This document shows positions 15,961 to 53,528 of a DNA stretch of 64,000 nucleotides, piece by piece; positions within the stretch are counted from its first letter, which is position 1, and each line of letters begins with the position of its first letter. The stretch is from NCBI RefSeq assembly GCF_024298765.1, contig NZ_CP101210.1; one strand, given 5' to 3'. Source of the DNA: Escherichia coli (GTDB taxonomy: Bacteria > Pseudomonadota > Gammaproteobacteria > Enterobacterales > Enterobacteriaceae). The notes beneath the pieces are model-generated. The model searched no databases, was not told where the DNA came from, and saw only the letters and a program-made list of their open reading frames with translations. Both the position numbers and the translations under genes were made by a program.

Positions 15961-16047
15961 GCCCGGATGGTGGAATCGGTAGACACAAGGGATTTAAAAT
16001 CCCTCGGCGTTCGCGCTGTGCGGGTTCAAGTCCCGCTCCGGGTACCA
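15961..16047 (+). tRNA. leuZ: tRNA-Leu, long variable arm; integration target of the prophage
   Basis: 87-nt sequence gcccggatggtggaatcggtagac...tccgggtacca; its 3' half is duplicated at 53405-53459. Confidence 0.9.
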
Positions 16048-16116
16048 TGGGAAAGATAAGAATAAAATCAAAGCAATAAGCAGTGTCGTGAAACCACCTT
16101 CGGGTGGTTTTTTTGT
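15993..16116 (+). repeat. attL: 124-bp direct repeat (3' half of leuZ plus downstream terminator)
   Basis: Identical by eye to 53405-53528; includes the leuZ terminator hairpin gaaaccaccttcgggtggttttttt. Confidence 0.85.
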
Positions 16117-39650: not shown

Positions 39651-41402
39651 ATGATTCAGGACGCTTTTGTGCGCCAGCGTGCGCGACAACTTTACTGGCA
39701 GGGTTATCCGCCCGCAGAAATATCACGTCTGATGGGAATAAACCCGAACACGATTTATGCGTGGAAAAAACGCGACCAGTGGGATGAAACGCCACCCGTG
39801 CAGCGTGTCACGCAATCCATTGATGCGCGCCTCATCCAGCTTACTGAAAAACAGAATAAAACAGGCGGTGACTTCAAGGAAATAGACCTGCTGACACGGC
39901 AGCTTAAAAAGCTGCATGATGGCCAGCCGGATGTGATTGCCGCAGGAAAGAAAGGCCGGGCGAAAAAACTCAAAAATCATTTCACGCCGGAACAGATTGC
40001 CGCACTGCGGGAAAAAATCATCAGCAGGCTGGAGTGGCATCAGCGGGGCTGGTTTGACTCCCTGACCCTTTGCAGGGAAGCCGGGATACGTAACAGGATG
40101 ATCCTGAAATCCCGACAGATTGGGGCGACCTGGTATTTTGCACAGGAAGCACTGCTGATGGCGCTGCGTGACGATGTGGTGCAACCTTATCAGCGTAACC
40201 AGATTTTTTTGTCTGCGTCGCGTCGTCAGGCGTTCCAGTTTAAAAGCATTATTCAGAAGGCCGCGGCTGAAGTTGATGTGGAGCTGAAAGGGGGCGATAA
40301 AATCATCCTCTCCAACGGCGCAGAGCTGCATTTTCTCGGCACTTCTGCTGCGTCGGCACAGTCCTATACGGGCAATTTTTATTTTGATGAATTCTTCTGG
40401 GTCAGTCGCTTTGCTGAACTGCGCAAGGTGGCTGGCGCTATGGCAACCCTCAGCGGACTGCGGCGCACCTACTTCTCCACGCCATCCACCGAAACGCACG
40501 AGGCATACGCCTACTGGAACGGCGACCGCTGGAACGAGAAAAAGGCCACGCATAAACGCCAGCGTTTTTCTGTGGACTGGAAAACGCTGCATAACGGGCT
40601 TATCTGCCCTGACCGGACGTGGCGGCAAATTGTCACGCTGGAAGATGTGGTTAATCACGGCTGGAAACACACCGATATTGATGAAATTCGTGATGAAAAC
40701 ACCGAAGACGAGTTCCTCAATCTCTATATGTGTGAGTTTGTCCGCGAAGGGGAATCGGCATTTAACCTGAATATCCTGATTGGCTGTGGTGTTGACGGAT
40801 ACGACGACTGGAAAGACTGGAAACCTTTTGCTCCCCGCCCGATGGGGAATCGCCCGGTATGGATTGGGTATGACGCAAATGGCAGCAGTGGCAACGGCGA
40901 CAGCGGCGCTGTGTCCGTGGTGGTTCCTCCGGCTGTTCCTGGTGGCCGTTTTCGAACGGTGGAGACGCGACGCGTTCAGGGGCTGGAGTTTGAAGAACAG
41001 GCCAGAGTCATTGAAGAGTTCACGTGTCGCTACAACGTGGAACACATCGGCATTGATGTGACGGGCGGGAACGGGGAGGCTGTTTATCAGATAGTGAAAC
41101 GGTTTTTCCCTGCCGCTATTCCGTACACCTTCACGCTGTCATCAAAACGGTCGCTGGTACTGAAAATGCTGCAAATAATGCGTGCAGGGCGGTGGGAATA
41201 CGATCGCGCCGAACGCGAGCTGGTCGCGGCCTTTAACGCCGTGCGTAAGGTGAAAACACCGGGCGGCTTTATCACTTACGAAACGGACCGCGCGAGGGGG
41301 ATCAGCCACGGCGACCTTGCGTGGGCAACCATGCTTGCTGTCATTAACGAACCAATTGGCGGCGAAGGAGAAAACGAGCGTTTCACGGTTATGGAGTTCT
41401 GA
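39651..41402 (+). CDS. Terminase large (ATPase) subunit gpP
   Basis: 583 aa with conserved N-terminus RARQLYWQGYPPAEISRLMG. Confidence 0.9.
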   Translation: MIQDAFVRQRARQLYWQGYPPAEISRLMGINPNTIYAWKKRDQWDETPPVQRVTQSIDARLIQLTEKQNKTGGDFKEIDLLTRQLKKLHDGQPDVIAAGKKGRAKKLKNHFTPEQIAALREKIISRLEWHQRGWFDSLTLCREAGIRNRMILKSRQIGATWYFAQEALLMALRDDVVQPYQRNQIFLSASRRQAFQFKSIIQKAAAEVDVELKGGDKIILSNGAELHFLGTSAASAQSYTGNFYFDEFFWVSRFAELRKVAGAMATLSGLRRTYFSTPSTETHEAYAYWNGDRWNEKKATHKRQRFSVDWKTLHNGLICPDRTWRQIVTLEDVVNHGWKHTDIDEIRDENTEDEFLNLYMCEFVREGESAFNLNILIGCGVDGYDDWKDWKPFAPRPMGNRPVWIGYDANGSSGNGDSGAVSVVVPPAVPGGRFRTVETRRVQGLEFEEQARVIEEFTCRYNVEHIGIDVTGGNGEAVYQIVKRFFPAAIPYTFTLSSKRSLVLKMLQIMRAGRWEYDRAERELVAAFNAVRKVKTPGGFITYETDRARGISHGDLAWATMLAVINEPIGGEGENERFTVMEF

Positions 41403-42448
41403 TGAGCAGAAAAAATAAAAAAGTGCGCATGAGTTCACGCATTGATCTCGCTGATGCGCTCAGGAAAGAATCATCGCTCAGTGCATTCACATTTGATGGT
41501 CCTTATCGCCTGACCGGGCATGACCTGCTGGACAATATGTACTGTGCTGATAACGGGCGGTGGTATGAAACCCCGGTGGACTGGTACGGTCTGGCAAGAG
41601 CCGCCCGGCAAACGTCCTGGCATCAGTCTGCGCTTTACTTTAAGCGCAATGTATTACTCGGTTGCTACATCCCGCACCCGCTGCTTTCCCGGCAGGATTT
41701 CTCGGCGCTGGCGCTGGACTGGTTTGTGTTCGGTAACGCATTCCTTGAGCTTCGGAGCAATATGCTCGGCGAACCGCTTAAATTACGGCACGCCCTGGCG
41801 AAATACATGCGACGCGGAAGCGATCTTGAATCATGGTGGTATGTGCAGGATGGCAAGGACGCGTTCCAGTTTCGCCCTGGCAAAGTGTGCCACCTGATGA
41901 ATCCGGATATTAACCAGGAAATCTACGGCATGCCGGAATATCTTGGCGCATTACTCTCGGCCAGCCTTTCTCATTCGGCGGACATGTTCAGAAAACTGTA
42001 CTACGACAACGGATCCCACGCCGGGTGCATCATCTACATCGGTGCAGCGCAGGTAAACCGCGAAAGCATGGACTCCCTGAAAGAAACGTTACAGGGTGCG
42101 CGTGGTGGTGGTGCATTTAAAAACGTGCTCATTCATGCGCCCAACGGGGGCAAAGAAGGGGTGCAAATTTTGCCGTTCCAGCAGATCACCGCAAAAGATG
42201 AGTTCATGAATGTTAAGGCGGCATCCCGTGATGATGTGCTGGCTGCGCACCGCGTTCCGCCGCAACTGATGGGGGCGATGCCGGGCGAAAAAAGTGCGTT
42301 TGGTGATGTGGAGAAGGCCGCGCGGGTTTACGCAATTAACGAGCTGATGCCCGTCATGGAGGCCATGAAGCACATCAATGACTGGCTTGGCGAAGAGGTG
42401 ATCCGCTTTAACCCTTACGCACTGTTAGACACCCAGCCCACATCCTGA
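41402..42448 (+). CDS. Portal protein gpQ
   Basis: 348 aa overlapping the P stop (ATGA), as in the P2 P-Q operon. Confidence 0.9.
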   Translation: MSRKNKKVRMSSRIDLADALRKESSLSAFTFDGPYRLTGHDLLDNMYCADNGRWYETPVDWYGLARAARQTSWHQSALYFKRNVLLGCYIPHPLLSRQDFSALALDWFVFGNAFLELRSNMLGEPLKLRHALAKYMRRGSDLESWWYVQDGKDAFQFRPGKVCHLMNPDINQEIYGMPEYLGALLSASLSHSADMFRKLYYDNGSHAGCIIYIGAAQVNRESMDSLKETLQGARGGGAFKNVLIHAPNGGKEGVQILPFQQITAKDEFMNVKAASRDDVLAAHRVPPQLMGAMPGEKSAFGDVEKAARVYAINELMPVMEAMKHINDWLGEEVIRFNPYALLDTQPTS

Positions 42449-42978: not shown

Positions 42979-44358
42979 ATGAAAAAAATCAATAAAGAAG
43001 ATTCTAAAAGAACCTTTTTACGTGGATGGTTGCGATTTCTTCGTAGCGTTGAGAGAGCTAAGAAAAAAAAGCCTGCGCAAGAGAAAAATGGTAGTCTTCG
43101 TTTTTCCGATGAAACAACTCCTGTCCAAAACCAAGTCGCTACGTTCATTGAAAATATATCGATTATAAAAGAGTATGACTCATCAATTCTTCGTCGTGAC
43201 GCAGAGAAGATATTAATACCTAAATATTTTGACTTATATGACAATCCAGAGAAATCTCTGCTATTTATTAGTGCAGCCACAAAATTAATTGCAAGAGGTA
43301 AATGGAAATCATATATTTTTGATTACAAGAAAAACAAAAAACACTGTCTTGGTCTTGAGTGTCTATTAGGTGTTGCTCTTACAGCAGCAAGGCAAAGTAA
43401 TATAAATTTCAAAGATACGATGATTCAGATTAATGGTATCTACCCTAAAGATGAACAGTATCTTGAAATTATCAGGGATGTCGGGCTTGTAAAAGAGATT
43501 AGTAATGCTGCACCAGGTAAAGTTCTGGACTCTACTGAAGCATCGAAAAAAGCGAATCCGAAGAAACGAATCTTCTCTGCTGATAGTATCGGAAAGGAGA
43601 ATGCTTCTGCCTTTGCCCATGACAGAAAAAATGTCACTGCTGAAAAATTTACCGCATACATAAACGAATGCTTAAATGATCATAATTTAAAACTTGTACA
43701 TGAGGCAGAAAAGCATTTAACTTCCTGCATGGGGGAACTCCTTGATAATGCGGAGCGGCATTGTGGGTTAGAGCAACGCCCACGCTGGTATTTGAGAGGT
43801 TTTGTTAATAATAACGTACGAAACCCCATATGTGAGTTGGCTGTTTTCAATTTTGGGAAAACTATCAGCGAAACTTTTGATAATTTACCTGAGGATCATT
43901 TTTCATTAAGTCAACAAGTTAATCCATACATAAATAAGCATATTAAGAAAAAGGGTATGTTTAAGGAAGGATTAACAACAGTAGCGGCCTTGCAAGGGCG
44001 GGTGAGTTGTAAAAACGAGAAAGAAACTGACAGTTCTGGCACCGGAACAATTGAATTATTGAAGTTATTTCAAGATATGCATGATAATCTTAAAAAAATG
44101 GGAAGAGATATTAAAGGTGGGATAAAAATGACTTTAATATCTGGTAGTACTCATATTAACTTTGATGGATCATATAAATTAAAGCAAAGGTTGGTTAATG
44201 ACGAGGAAAGTGACATTTTTACTTACCCTTTTAATGATGTAGGGCTTGAATCTGAACCGGATCGCAACTATCTTAAGCGTATGAAGGATGCTCGATTTCC
44301 TGGAGTTATGATCAATATTCGTTTTCCTCTACCAGAAAACGCCACCCAGCGAACTTGA
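42979..44358 (+). CDS. Hypothetical protein with C-terminal GHKL-type (histidine kinase/SpoIIAB-like) ATPase domain; candidate defence gene A
   Basis: N-box-like ELLDNAERH, G-box-like DSSGTGTIELL, terminal GG...G...FPLP typical of HATPase_c; AT-rich; RBS AGGAAC before ATG 42979 (ORF finder starts at 42883). Confidence 0.55.
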   Translation: MKKINKEDSKRTFLRGWLRFLRSVERAKKKKPAQEKNGSLRFSDETTPVQNQVATFIENISIIKEYDSSILRRDAEKILIPKYFDLYDNPEKSLLFISAATKLIARGKWKSYIFDYKKNKKHCLGLECLLGVALTAARQSNINFKDTMIQINGIYPKDEQYLEIIRDVGLVKEISNAAPGKVLDSTEASKKANPKKRIFSADSIGKENASAFAHDRKNVTAEKFTAYINECLNDHNLKLVHEAEKHLTSCMGELLDNAERHCGLEQRPRWYLRGFVNNNVRNPICELAVFNFGKTISETFDNLPEDHFSLSQQVNPYINKHIKKKGMFKEGLTTVAALQGRVSCKNEKETDSSGTGTIELLKLFQDMHDNLKKMGRDIKGGIKMTLISGSTHINFDGSYKLKQRLVNDEESDIFTYPFNDVGLESEPDRNYLKRMKDARFPGVMINIRFPLPENATQRT

Positions 44359-44368
44359 GGACAGGTAC

Positions 44369-44713
44369 ATGAAAATGGCTGACATCACCATAGATTTCAA
44401 TAAGTTAGTAAAAGATAGTAACAAGAAACTTTTTGCTGGACGTTCTAATGGGCGCCAGGCCTATGATTACTTTAATATAGGGAAATTTTGCACAACCAGT
44501 AATGATAGATTATATCTATTGATCCCCAAGGGAATTGTTGTATCAAGCTCATACTTTCTAGGTATGCTTGAAACGGTTTTGCCGAAATTTTCTTCGCCTA
44601 GCGAATTTTATAGTCGCACTGTACTTGATGGTCGTGAATATAAAGAAGGTATGCTTTCTGAATTAGATAGAGCTGTAAGGAGAGGCTTACATAAAAATGT
44701 TCCCTTCTTTTAA
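44369..44713 (+). CDS. Small protein, possibly STAS/anti-sigma-antagonist-like; candidate defence gene B
   Basis: 114 aa immediately after the ATPase gene; IVVSSSYFLGMLE resembles the STAS core; very tentative. Confidence 0.4.
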   Translation: MKMADITIDFNKLVKDSNKKLFAGRSNGRQAYDYFNIGKFCTTSNDRLYLLIPKGIVVSSSYFLGMLETVLPKFSSPSEFYSRTVLDGREYKEGMLSELDRAVRRGLHKNVPFF

Positions 44714-45506
44714 AAATATTTTTCAAATCAAAATGACAGCGCTGTCTGTCATTTTTTTTATATTCCCCGCAGCTTGCTCTGTGACAGATTTTTCCAATAA
44801 AGAAAACATTGAATGTAATGAGTCACTTTATCCAAACACGCCTTTTTATATTTCCGATTCAGGACTTAGTGGTATATCATCACCGTTTTTGTTATCCGGA
44901 AACCCGAATGATGGCTTGATGTTTTGTGAAAAGGCAAACGACACCTTTCATAAGTTATCTCTGGCAAGGGATAACAAAAAAGATTTATTTACTAATTATT
45001 TCAAAGATGTTCCAAATTCCTATGATATATATAATATTGTAAAGGTTCCGGAAAATGGTCCAGAGTGGATTTCTATTGGCATCTCTTTATTTGCTTTAGT
45101 TTCATCCTTTGTTATTCCTTGTGTTCAACATAGAAAAGAACGTAAAGAAGCTATTAATGAAGGGTATTGGGTAAGAGAAGTAATTATGCCTAAAATTAAT
45201 GGGTTGGCATTCGATGTTGTGCAAAGTTTTAAAAACTCCATGGCATTATCAGAAGAGGAGTTTCTTAGTGTATTCAGTAATACTCTTTTACCAAAACTAG
45301 GAGAGTTACGGGATTCATTATATTTGTTTAATAGTTTTCCAGAATTAAATGCAGATATTGAAAATCTAGAAAGTATTTGTGACTCCTTGGAGGAAGAAGT
45401 TTCCAATCATATAGACTCGCCTAATGAAATAAGAATTTCTGATATATCAATGTTTCATTCCAAATTAATACAGAAATTAATTTTACTTCATAAGAAGATA
45501 GGTTGA
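44697..45506 (+). CDS. Membrane-anchored protein; candidate defence gene C (possible effector)
   Basis: Overlaps gene B by 17 nt; hydrophobic N-terminus (MTALSVIFFIFPAACS) and a central TM helix (WISIGISLFALVSSFVIPCV). Confidence 0.45.
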   Translation: MFPSFKNIFQIKMTALSVIFFIFPAACSVTDFSNKENIECNESLYPNTPFYISDSGLSGISSPFLLSGNPNDGLMFCEKANDTFHKLSLARDNKKDLFTNYFKDVPNSYDIYNIVKVPENGPEWISIGISLFALVSSFVIPCVQHRKERKEAINEGYWVREVIMPKINGLAFDVVQSFKNSMALSEEEFLSVFSNTLLPKLGELRDSLYLFNSFPELNADIENLESICDSLEEEVSNHIDSPNEIRISDISMFHSKLIQKLILLHKKIG

Positions 45507-45551: not shown

Positions 45552-48317
45552 CTATCGTGTTCGATGCAATAAACTGATTTTTTTGCGAGCATGTTTAGTG
45601 GTTTCACTGATTCTCTGTGCGTGCTCTGCGTCGCGGATGGCGCGCAGCATGTCAGAAAGTACGGTAACGGGTGTTTTCATGGTGTTCTGGTCTTGCTGAA
45701 GTGTGGATGCCAGGCGTGCGGCGGCTTCAGGGTCTGATGCCTCTAGTTGTTCCAGATAGCTGGCGACCGGGTTATGGCGGATCTCCGTGCTGCTTACGCC
45801 GTGATTACGACTCAGGCGTTGCCAGAGCTGCGTGATTCGGCTGTCCGGGCGGGTATCCTGTTTGCGTACAATTTCAAATCCCTGCGGTGCAATGATGCTG
45901 CCGCCAACGTACAGACTGCCGCCTCGTAACAGGTGCTGCATCTGCTGTTCACCGATATGCAGGCCGAGAGATTCAGCAGACTCCCGCCATTCTTTAGCGA
46001 GTAACTCGTGGTTATCAGGCAAAGGCTGTGGCTGTTTGCGGCTCTGTGTCCAGTTCTGCATTTCATCACTGCTGTTTTTTGCCTGTTTGTCACGCAGCGA
46101 ACGCATCAGTGCCCGGCGTTCGTGCCGTTTCAGTGAGCGCATCCATTCATTCACGTCAACGCCTTCAGGAAGCCGCGGCCACGGTGCTGGCCGTTCTTCC
46201 GGCTGTTCTGTCCCGTTGTTGTCCGTTTCCTGTACACGGGGACAGTTATTGCCACGAGTCCAAGGGGCGGCAGGGCCGCCCTGAAGGTCAAAACCATTTT
46301 CGCGGGCGCTGTCTTCCGTTTCCGGTTTACGTCTTACCAGTTTCCAGTTATCCGGATGCGTGCACACACGGGAGGATTCCCCGATGAGTGGTGACCAGAT
46401 CCCGTAAATCTGTACGCTCTGTTCGCCGTAATCATTCAGCTCATCTGCGAGGTCGTAGGCGGTGCGAATCAGGTAGTCTTTGCGTGGAACAAGTACGCCG
46501 CCCTGTTTTTCAATGTAGGTGGCAAAACACCCGGCATCGGCGGCAGCGAGTACCGCATCCATTGCGTCATCTTTCAGTCGTTGCGGGCCTTCCGGGTTGC
46601 GTGCCATCTGGCTGGCAAGGCGGCGCAGTTCACGCCACACCTGACGGGAGGGGATGCCAAAGAACTGGAACTGGCGGACCCGATGAAGGCGCGCCCAGCC
46701 GATGGCGCGCTCCACACTCTCGGCCATTGATTTTCCGGTTTCGTGGTCAACGCGTGGCTTGCCCGTTTTCGGGTCGATGCCATCCACGGCGCGGCTGTCC
46801 AGGTTCTTTCCGATGTAGGTCGCGATATAGCTGGTTGGTGTGCCTTTTGAGCCGTCGACATACTCCGCCTTAAAGCGCGGAGTAATATCATTGCCCAGCT
46901 CGTGGCGGTCTTCCTGAATGGCAATATCGCGGGTGATGGCCACGATGCTGTCGATTTCTTCCGGATGAGCAAAGACCATCATATGCCAGTGCACGGTGCC
47001 GTCATGGTGAGGCTCCACCGTGCGGATGCCATACCAGCGAAGACCGTCGCGGTTCAGTTTTTTGCGGACCGCCGCAAAAAACGTGTTAACCAGGTAATCG
47101 CTGGAGTCGCGCATGGTGGCCCCGTTCCATTTGGGATTCGGATGACCGTTCTCTGTTGTGGCGTGGTATTTTGACGGGCAGGTGACAGTCAGAAACACCG
47201 CTTTGTCGCCACGGGCTTCGGCCAGAAGTTCCAGCCCCTTCATGGTGGCCATCATTTCTGCCTTACGGTGAACCGGGTTACTTACTCCCGCGTAATACAC
47301 CGTCTCGAGATCAATCGTGAACCCGTCTTCGTTTTCCAGCATGAAACTTTTCAGGAAATCGCGTGTTTTCTCGCGCTGTGCGCGAAACTCGCTTAACGCG
47401 TCCTGGCTCAAATAGGGCGATGTTTTTCTGGAAACCAGACAGGCGGCGCGGAGTTGTTCTTCTCTCCACTCGCAACGTAACAGCCACAGTTTGCGTTTCC
47501 ACCATTCCGCACAGGTCAGGCGAAGGATTGCGCCCGGCAGCAGTTCTGTGTCCGGTTCGTTCCTCCGGTCTTTGTCTGTTGTCAGTGCGTCATAATGCGG
47601 AGGCATGGCGTGCAAGTGTAACGCCATGCGGGCCAGCATCTGATACGCCTTCAGCGTTACATCCATGGTCAGCTCGCCATCGGTCGCGCCAAAACCATCG
47701 CAGAGTTTTTCGAAGGTGCTGCTGAACATCGCCGCCGTCATGGTGGCCAGCGTCTGTATCTGGTGTTTGTTGAGTTGCGGCAGGTAAAGCAAATCGTCCA
47801 GGCGTTCACGTCCGGCAAGGGACCGATAACCCGGTGTCAGCCAACGGCTGTCGGTGCGGTCCAGACGTACGAATATTTTGCGCAGGGTTCCGCGCGCGTA
47901 GCGTTCAGCCTGCCAGCTCTTTTTGCCTTTCTGACGATCGGATTCCTGTTTTTTGCGCAGGAAAGAGAGGTGGCGGCTCAGAGGTTCACGCAGATAAACG
48001 GGAAGCACCTTCAGTGTGGCAAAAGCACGGGCCACCGGGTCTTGTTCTGTTGCCTGACGCTTGCTGATGATGCTTTGTGCCAGCTTTTCACGCTGTCCGG
48101 CTTCCTCAAGGGATGCCATGAGTTTTTTACCCACGGTGGATTGTGCGAAAAAGGCTTCCTCCTTCGCTTCCTGTTCTTTCCGGGCCTTTTTGTCCGCCTC
48201 AAGGTAGTAACGGATGGCGCGTTGCAGCTCGGTTTCAGTTTCCTGCCTGCGCTCCGTAAATCTGTCCGGATCAATGGCTGGCCGTGGTTCATTCCAGCTC
48301 CATGCAAACTCACTCAT
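45552..48317 (-). CDS. Replication initiation protein gpA (rolling-circle endonuclease), with extended C-terminus
   Basis: About 921 aa; start MSEFAWSWNEPRP overlaps the upstream ORF stop (ATGA); longer than the ~760 aa I recall for P2 A. Confidence 0.8.
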   Translation of the reverse strand: MSEFAWSWNEPRPAIDPDRFTERRQETETELQRAIRYYLEADKKARKEQEAKEEAFFAQSTVGKKLMASLEEAGQREKLAQSIISKRQATEQDPVARAFATLKVLPVYLREPLSRHLSFLRKKQESDRQKGKKSWQAERYARGTLRKIFVRLDRTDSRWLTPGYRSLAGRERLDDLLYLPQLNKHQIQTLATMTAAMFSSTFEKLCDGFGATDGELTMDVTLKAYQMLARMALHLHAMPPHYDALTTDKDRRNEPDTELLPGAILRLTCAEWWKRKLWLLRCEWREEQLRAACLVSRKTSPYLSQDALSEFRAQREKTRDFLKSFMLENEDGFTIDLETVYYAGVSNPVHRKAEMMATMKGLELLAEARGDKAVFLTVTCPSKYHATTENGHPNPKWNGATMRDSSDYLVNTFFAAVRKKLNRDGLRWYGIRTVEPHHDGTVHWHMMVFAHPEEIDSIVAITRDIAIQEDRHELGNDITPRFKAEYVDGSKGTPTSYIATYIGKNLDSRAVDGIDPKTGKPRVDHETGKSMAESVERAIGWARLHRVRQFQFFGIPSRQVWRELRRLASQMARNPEGPQRLKDDAMDAVLAAADAGCFATYIEKQGGVLVPRKDYLIRTAYDLADELNDYGEQSVQIYGIWSPLIGESSRVCTHPDNWKLVRRKPETEDSARENGFDLQGGPAAPWTRGNNCPRVQETDNNGTEQPEERPAPWPRLPEGVDVNEWMRSLKRHERRALMRSLRDKQAKNSSDEMQNWTQSRKQPQPLPDNHELLAKEWRESAESLGLHIGEQQMQHLLRGGSLYVGGSIIAPQGFEIVRKQDTRPDSRITQLWQRLSRNHGVSSTEIRHNPVASYLEQLEASDPEAAARLASTLQQDQNTMKTPVTVLSDMLRAIRDAEHAQRISETTKHARKKISLLHRTR

Positions 48318-48703
48318 GGCTGGTATCCCGTCACGCGCTGCCACTCCTGCGAGAAGAGGGTGGAAAGGCGGTTAAATTCAGCGGTGTATTCACTCAGCGA
48401 GGCACACCCGCCAGCAGTGTGATGCGCCAGCATTGCCGCAAATACGGAGGTCGGGGAGTCGTAATACGCCAGCAGTGATTCGCCATGCGGTGTCAGGCAG
48501 CGCAACGCCAGCCCGTGTGGTGTTAAGTCCACGCGGTAGCAGTCGTCTACTGTGAAATAAAGGGTGTCTGCATTCTCCGGTTTTGTAGTGCGTGCTCTGT
48601 TGTCACGACTACGGATGTAGAGATCAAATAATCCCTGAAGAACGGGAGCCAGACGGGTGTCCTGTGTGCGCACCCATCTTGTGAAGTCATGAGCGTCAAT
48701 CAT
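48314..48703 (-). CDS. Hypothetical early-region protein, translationally coupled to gpA
   Basis: 129-aa ORF whose stop overlaps the A start. Confidence 0.45.
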   Translation of the reverse strand: MIDAHDFTRWVRTQDTRLAPVLQGLFDLYIRSRDNRARTTKPENADTLYFTVDDCYRVDLTPHGLALRCLTPHGESLLAYYDSPTSVFAAMLAHHTAGGCASLSEYTAEFNRLSTLFSQEWQRVTGYQP

Positions 48704-49427: not shown

Positions 49428-49670
49428 TCATGCAATATTCCCCAGCTTATACGGTTCAATATGCTCCCCGCATTCTGCGGCACAGATCAGCTCGGAAAGT
49501 TCGTTAAGTGCATCCAGATCATCAGCGTAAAAAGCCACGTCATACAGACTCCGGATTGCCCTGGTTAATGAGTCACGGGCTGCACGTTCAGCATGAGTAC
49601 CTGATGCACTTAAGCGAAAATAAAAACGCTCAAGTGCTTTGTTTATGAGAGTCTTATATTCTTTGCCCAT
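49428..49670 (-). CDS. Hypothetical small early protein
   Basis: 80-aa ORF in the early operon. Confidence 0.35.
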   Translation of the reverse strand: MGKEYKTLINKALERFYFRLSASGTHAERAARDSLTRAIRSLYDVAFYADDLDALNELSELICAAECGEHIEPYKLGNIA

Positions 49671-49681
49671 CGCAACGCCCT

Positions 49682-49960
49682 TTAATCTGCTTTCTGAATT
49701 TCAGCTTCTGAATCCATGCAGATAATTTCGATATAGGGTTCATCGCCATTAACCTGACGAGCTTTTTCAGCTTCGTTAATTATTTCGCGAACGGTCTGGT
49801 ACGGAAGTTCTACTGTCAGGCGCGTACCGTTCAGATAAACGTAGGTAGCTGCATTTTTTCAGATGGAACTACTCCGTCAATAGCTGATGCGCGTAATAAC
49901 AGTTCACCGCGAAAATCAATAAAGCGGATAAATACACCTTGTGCATGGTCTTTAGTCATA
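49682..49960 (-). pseudogene. Small early gene (about 90 aa) interrupted by a frameshift at an A6 run
   Basis: MTKDHAQGVFIRFIDFRGELLLRASAIDGVVPSE... continues in another frame as ...TYVYLNGTRLTVELPYQTVREIINEAEKARQVNGDEPYIEIICMDSEAEIQKAD after the run at 49854-49859. Confidence 0.3.
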
Positions 49961-49969
49961 AAGCACCTG

Positions 49970-50320
49970 TTATAAATCAGCCTGTTTAATAAAACTTTGC
50001 CCGCGAAGCAAACGATCGACTGTGCGCAGTGCTTCGTACAATGTAAAATCCTGCCCGAACTGATTATCGCCGTTGCTTAATGCAAAAATGCGGTTTCCGG
50101 TAAACGGATTGCGTGAGCATCTGTGAACCACTATTCCAGCTTTCTCAATCAGCCAGGTGTGTTCGCCGATTTGTTTTACAGCGTGCCCATCTGGTGTTGC
50201 GTGCGTCTCGTTCAGGTTATAGCGATTGTTACTACGTGATGCACTGGTAGCGACGTGGTGTATATGGCGTTCTACGCCATTACGAAATTTGGAGTATGGA
50301 TTATTAGCGTGTTTTTTCAT
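49970..50320 (-). CDS. Hypothetical early protein
   Basis: 116-aa ORF in the early operon. Confidence 0.4.
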   Translation of the reverse strand: MKKHANNPYSKFRNGVERHIHHVATSASRSNNRYNLNETHATPDGHAVKQIGEHTWLIEKAGIVVHRCSRNPFTGNRIFALSNGDNQFGQDFTLYEALRTVDRLLRGQSFIKQADL

Positions 50321-50768: not shown

Positions 50769-50810
50769 AGTGGTATATTGTGATCATCTAATAGCTCGTG
50801 AAATCATTTT

Positions 50811-50828
50811 GGTATCAAAAAAGATACC
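50811..50828. promoter_or_regulatory. Candidate operator palindrome GGTATC-N6-GATACC in the genetic switch region
   Basis: Perfect 6-bp inverted repeat with an A6 spacer between the divergent early and repressor genes. Confidence 0.35.
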
Positions 50829-50843
50829 TGTCAAGGTTTTTGT

Positions 50844-53404: not shown

Positions 53405-53528
53405 TTTAAAATCCCTCGGCGTTCGCGCTGTGCGGGTTCAAGTCCCGCTCCGGGTACCATGGGAAAGATAAGAATAAAATCAAAGCAATAAGCAGTGTCG
53501 TGAAACCACCTTCGGGTGGTTTTTTTGT
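53405..53528 (+). repeat. attR: 124-bp direct repeat (partial 3' leuZ copy plus terminator)
   Basis: Identical by eye to 15993-16116. Confidence 0.85.

Follow-up and report, generated by a model that had tools for sequence, protein, structure and literature searches.

A one-base frameshift at an A6 run in a conserved early gene of a P88-like prophage of Escherichia coli

The early gene in P88-like phages and the prophage in the window

In P2-type phages, the small open reading frames located between cox and A typically encode non-essential accessory early proteins. The closest described counterparts of the locus analysed here are present in P88 (gp05), vB_EcoM-569R5 and phage 520873, in each of which one CDS of 279 nt lies between the genes for a DUF4761 and a DUF4754 protein, two families of which no mention was found in the literature searched. 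The gene is carried by 14 phage records only, all of which are P88-like; the 12 records with full coverage each contain one uninterrupted piece of 92-95 aa, and the other two contain the last 36 residues only. Within the family the gene contains an A run that varies, from A8 in frame in P88 to GATAAAAGC in phage 520873.

The locus studied here belongs to a prophage of approximately 37.5 kb that sits just upstream of yecA in the window, the 64,000-nt stretch of the E. coli contig NZ_CP101210.1 that was analysed. The early region has 87-92% nucleotide identity to P88, 569R5, 520873 and P884B11 over 951 bp, and this similarity, together with the gene order, places the prophage among the P2-type prophages (Peduoviridae, Xuanwuvirus / P88-like). 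In near-identical relatives, both the structural and the replication genes are of P2 type. The prophage is flanked by a 124-bp direct repeat (attL/attR) at 15993-16116 and approximately 53405-53528, the right-hand coordinates being derived from the alignment with E. coli 22AR0750. The features of the early region are collected in Table 1.

Table 1. The interrupted gene and its neighbours in the early region (positions in the window).
Feature	Position	Strand	Remarks
DUF4754 protein, 80 aa, intact downstream neighbour	49428..49670	-	start 160 nt past the premature stop
C-terminal remainder of the interrupted gene	49682..49855	-	codons N36-D92 + TAA, -1 frame
N-terminal fragment ORF	49831..49959	-	35 native codons + 7 out-of-frame + TGA; 42 aa
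A6 run, site of the 1-nt deletion	49854..49859	-	A7 in the intact alleles of the clade
DUF4761 protein, 116 aa, intact upstream neighbour	49970..50320	-	early operon
Cox-like excisionase/repressor, 67 aa	50342..50545	-	early operon gene 2; phrog_575, E 1e-27
Arc-like repressor, 68 aa	50562..50768	-	early operon gene 1; phrog_3431, E 2e-28
Promoter-like TTGACA-17-CAAAAT	50806..50834	-	candidate early promoter of the operon, by consensus match only
HTH immunity-repressor-like gene, divergent, 134 aa	50844..51248	+	

An earlier note, made from the letters alone, had likened the early-gene lesion to others of homopolymer type in gpI and in an alternative fibre segment. The gpI lesion is present in the sequence: the gpI baseplate gene (minus strand, approximately 31243-31772) is frameshifted at 31443, where GGGAACA of 22AR0750 and O111:H8 8E reads GGGACA, but the base is lost from an AA dinucleotide and not from a long homopolymer. 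Of the 176 residues of gpI, approximately 110 precede the truncation. No public record matched the shortened product of 122 aa exactly, a result that is uninformative, as the choice of start codon may differ. No lesion was found in the fibre segment: 26950-28620 aligns base for base with its relatives, has no net indel and shares 99.8% identity with a strain where it forms part of an intact tail-fibre gene. As a consequence of the gpI frameshift, the prophage is probably defective and unable to make virions, regardless of the lesion in the early gene.

Other parts of this prophage lineage also differ between strains, and its members decay at differing genes. In E. coli 22AR0750 (NZ_CP195454.1, locus L004 15827-18668), the closest relative with an intact allele, the replication endonuclease (gene A) is frameshifted and ISKpn26 is inserted in the immunity region. 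A Cin/Gin-type invertible tail-fibre region occupies 26369-29135 of the window. Its serine invertase (Resolvase + HTH_7) is encoded at 26369-26974 and its alternative cassette for the fibre C-terminus at 27061-28044, and it also includes two genes for tail-fibre assembly; the segment 27011-28024 is in the inverse orientation relative to strain O111:H8 8E. Additionally, a cassette of three genes (459, 114 and 269 aa) is located at 42979-45506 on the + strand, with the portal gene Q (41402-42448) on one side and the replication gene A (45552-48344) on the other. This is the P2 tin/old position, an anti-phage hotspot (PMC9122126), and the nearest relatives have ParM-like genes in place of the cassette. 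The three proteins have no match in Pfam, NCBIfam or PADLOC, and the first of them contains, as judged by eye, a GHKL-ATPase-like motif (ELLDNAERH). The cassette occurs widely, as its 114-aa protein is listed in 1580 blocks of the collection with the same neighbours in every case, and is a candidate for an uncharacterised defence or accessory system.

The lesion and the intact form of the gene

The frame opened by the ATG at 49957-49959 on the minus strand runs into the A6 run at 49859-49854, which appears as T6 on the + strand in the context gctgcaTTTTTTcagatgg. The resulting 42-aa product, MTKDHAQGVFIRFIDFRGELLLRASAIDGVVPSEKMQLPTFI, consists of the native-frame part MTKDHAQGVFIRFIDFRGELLLRASAIDGVVPSEK and the out-of-frame residues MQLPTFI, and it ends seven codons past the run at a TGA (49833-49831). 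The remainder of the gene, KNAATYVYLNGTRLTVELPYQTVREIINEAEKARQVNGDEPYIEIICMDSEAEIQKAD, is in the -1 frame, where it reads ...KNAATYVYLNG...EIQKAD and ends at the TAA at 49682-49684. From ATG to TAA the gene spans 278 nt, one nt short of a multiple of three. The earlier note had described a gene of roughly 90 aa broken exactly at the A6 run within 49682-49960; the break is confirmed, and the interval holds overall except at its end, which is one base off given the position of the ATG.

The restoration of one A gives a protein of 92 aa that is identical to WP_000158977.1, an annotated CDS in E. coli 22AR0750 and O111:H8 8E, and the translation of the 22AR0750 CDS corresponds to the two pieces of the window joined as ...PSEKNAATY.... 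Residues 1-92 of the repaired protein match positions 1-95 of the 95 positions of the PHROG profile phrog_3800 (E 8.9e-59), a family with an unknown-function label and the sole PHROGs outcome for this protein. A chance pattern is excluded, because a single restored A yields both the exact known protein and the full-length profile match. The location between the DUF4761 and DUF4754 genes is also that of phrog_3800 members, and the window copy departs from the family in that its frame is interrupted. No match to the repaired protein was found in Pfam, NCBIfam or a PDB sequence-profile search. When 1.84 billion representatives were searched exhaustively with phmmer, just 22 clusters were retrieved, each either enterobacterial or very weak, which indicates that the phrog_3800 family is narrow.

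The homologues are consistent with one gene. In the DNA alignment to P88, 569R5 and 520873, the sole gap in the window falls within the A run. Of the 5,426 complete E. coli genomes in RefSeq, approximately 1350 contain a 341-bp region that includes the locus; the best matches among them are 99.7% identical, the sole difference being one extra base (A7 vs A6). Every copy inspected in phages and complete E. coli genomes is a single 279-nt gene for 92 aa, and 57 such intact single-frame copies were recovered. Across a set of 29 distinct intact alleles, codons 1-35 have a pN/pS of 0.13 and codons 36-92 one of 0.145, which indicates purifying selection on both halves in one frame.

The two open stretches could also be read as two separate small genes, a 42-aa gene followed by a second one downstream. 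Apart from the presence of the two stretches nothing else speaks for this reading, which has next to no credibility: no start codon (ATG, GTG or TTG) is present in the downstream stretch, a TGA lies in its frame directly upstream of the run, and the ORF list contains no ORF of at least 20 aa in that frame. The homologues, none of which has two separate small ORFs here, already refute it, and both the full-length phrog_3800 match and the single predicted domain argue against it.

The AlphaFold2 model, built with 19 family members, has a mean pLDDT of 82.6 and a pTM of 0.73 and predicts one compact beta-rich domain across the break, with strands at residues 9-15, 18-23, 27-32, 39-43 and 46-50, a helix at 54-71 and a further strand at 77-82. 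In the predicted fold, the break past residue 35 separates strand 3 from strand 4. Because it would thereby split the single predicted domain, the 42-aa fragment should be unable to form the domain and is expected to be non-functional. By analogy with other early genes at this position, the intact protein may well be a non-essential accessory early protein.

The locus is likely a null allele, frameshifted by replication slippage, of a conserved accessory early gene for 92 aa in a P88-like prophage. Strand slippage during DNA replication would take one A out of A7 and convert GAA AAA AAT into GAA AAA ATG; ribosomes that start at the normal ATG would then leave the native frame past Lys35 and stop at 42 residues. 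The remaining 57 codons would stay untranslated, as a start codon is missing from their frame and the TGA just upstream closes it. The gene would appear dispensable for the lysogen. The flanking genes are intact in the window and in the other A6 carriers; judging from the layout, polarity on the downstream early genes is conceivable, as 160 nt would be untranslated before the DUF4754 start at 49670.

Authenticity and recurrence of the A6 allele

The A6 allele is probably real and not an assembly error. If the true run of the strain were A7, the missing A would be a homopolymer miscall and the gene would be intact, and several observations are in line with such an artefact. The lesion lies in a homopolymer, and the closest complete genomes all carry A7. 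Additionally, some of the public A6 copies belong to the NCTC and JBRXB series, in which erratic gene calls suggest long-read homopolymer errors, and error-prone public assemblies show many breaks of this kind in the prophage family. No exact match to A6, with three A6 haplotypes as queries, occurs among the 5,426 RefSeq complete E. coli genomes, approximately 1350 of which have the gene.

However, a miscall is rather unlikely in view of the sequence that surrounds the run and of the independent assemblies that share it. The alignment of the window with 22AR0750 reveals zero gaps and three mismatches over 13.4 kb of chromosome and prophage end (99.98% identity), and thus no other homopolymer indel in that stretch; the other approximately 17 kb of shared prophage contain two one-base gaps (at 49854 and, in gpI, at 31443), i.e. 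2 per approximately 31 kb. Several independent public assemblies contain stretches of 3-4 kb with 100% identity to the window, A6 included, namely the Logan assemblies SRR31598935 (4.3 kb) and SRR10083233 (3.2 kb), and a third Logan assembly, SRR18346039, is 99.98% identical to the window over 6.1 kb. Clean multi-kb contigs would not be expected from k-mer assemblies of noisy reads. The exact 42-aa product is present on 22 contigs of the public collection (P0109, e.g. STK29608.1). Two further A6 carriers differ by approximately 1% in their flanks; the NCTC assembly GCA_900449855.1, which has the same allele, is 99.05% identical to the window.

The lesion is also recurrent. Other truncated products of 42 aa occur on 133 (P0110), 80 (P0111) and 4 (P0115) contigs. 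When the gene was extracted from 24 A6 loci and one A was restored, at least four haplotype groups separated by 13-22 nt were obtained, three of which then match a known intact allele at 100% identity: the window type matches that of 22AR0750 and O111:H8 8E, the second that of phage 569R5, and the third that of FORC_069 and AR_0013. The prophages that carry these A6 alleles differ in their immunity regions and in where they are integrated. Two further run lengths, A8 (280 nt) and A5 (277 nt), came to light through gene calls in another frame (MHKVYLS...) and were verified on DNA. The frequency of A6 is approximately 2% of copies, and in IMG/VR the A6 pattern is present on one contig vs 53 with the A7 pattern. 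The picture that emerges is of a replication-slippage hot spot that gives rise to recent and independent null alleles at low frequency, with some sequencing noise likely mixed into the public data.

A second homopolymer in the gene, the A5 run GCTGAAAAAGC at 49762-49766 on the minus strand (gene position 193-197), is intact in the window. Public calls of 101-104 aa (P0047, P0062, P0068, P0086) are chimeric, with a change at this run into the frame of the 31-aa ORF at 49654-49749, which indicates two recurrent homopolymer frameshift sites of the gene in public assemblies. The A7 run is, in public E. coli assemblies, a source of spurious calls of 42, 85-88 and 101-104 aa for this gene family. 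For annotation, 49682-49959 should be treated as one frameshifted pseudogene and not as a 42-aa 'hypothetical protein'. We regard the locus as a routine pseudogene allele with a well-known kind of lesion, the exact allele being already in public databases; it matters little as one more pseudogene in a prophage that is also frameshifted in gpI.

Recoding, switching and comparison with known systems

A savior indel combined with low-level compensatory frameshifting has been documented (PMC5009743), and a corresponding rescue can be drawn for the A6 allele: if tRNA-Lys slipped by -1 on GAA AAA A, or if RNA polymerase added one A, some full-length protein would be made beside the 42-aa peptide. 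The decoding is compatible with it in that a P-site Lys slip from 49857-49855 to 49858-49856, followed by AAT GCA, gives exactly the wild-type SEKNAA, and the single E. coli tRNA-Lys is prone to shift on A runs. GAA AAA ATG permits a single-tRNA (P-site Lys) slip only, since the A-site codon ATG cannot re-pair.

Such recoding is nevertheless highly improbable. The 84 nt downstream of the run have a minimum free energy of -11.5 kcal/mol (z +1.29), and 187 of 200 shuffles fold at least as well. The two-frame layout is not conserved, the homologues being single-frame; the A run itself varies among the phages, as described above; and the A6 alleles are rare, each nested in an intact haplotype. Sites of the A_AAA_AAA type are, moreover, far less shifty than A_AAA_AAG (PMC5009743). 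With neither a stimulatory RNA structure downstream nor a conserved two-frame arrangement, programmed -1 frameshifting is rejected, and any frameshifting in the A6 allele would at most be adventitious leakiness.

Length polymorphism among strains in a tract within the gene, as is characteristic of phase-variable loci, is observed here (A5, A6, A7, A8); a tract of seven bases is short for true phase variation. It is very unlikely that the A7 tract switches the gene on and off reversibly, perhaps with leaky -1 slippage of tRNA-Lys on A6 that restores a low level of wild-type protein. If it did, P88-like prophages could adjust or shut down an early gene whose activity burdens the lysogen. A null allele left by replication slippage remains the preferred reading.

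In comparison with dnaX-type sites and savior indels (PMC5009743), the locus shares an A-rich tRNA-Lys slippery stretch on which slippage by -1 would bring back the native protein, whereas it has no stimulatory structure and no conserved pair of frames, and its sequence is A AAA AAT/ATG, not A AAA AAG. With the mutability of AT homopolymers in Salmonella (PMC8538453), it shares the single-base indel in a coding poly-A/T tract, which ranges from A5 to A8 across strains here; the tracts of that study comprise at least 8 bases, whereas that of the window, in its intact form, has 7, with no hint of adaptive use. As for the protein, P88 gp05 (YP_009113048.1) is 81.5% identical to the repaired window protein, with the same early-operon position and the same length, and WP_000158977.1 is 100% identical to it, the window copy differing by one missing A of A7.
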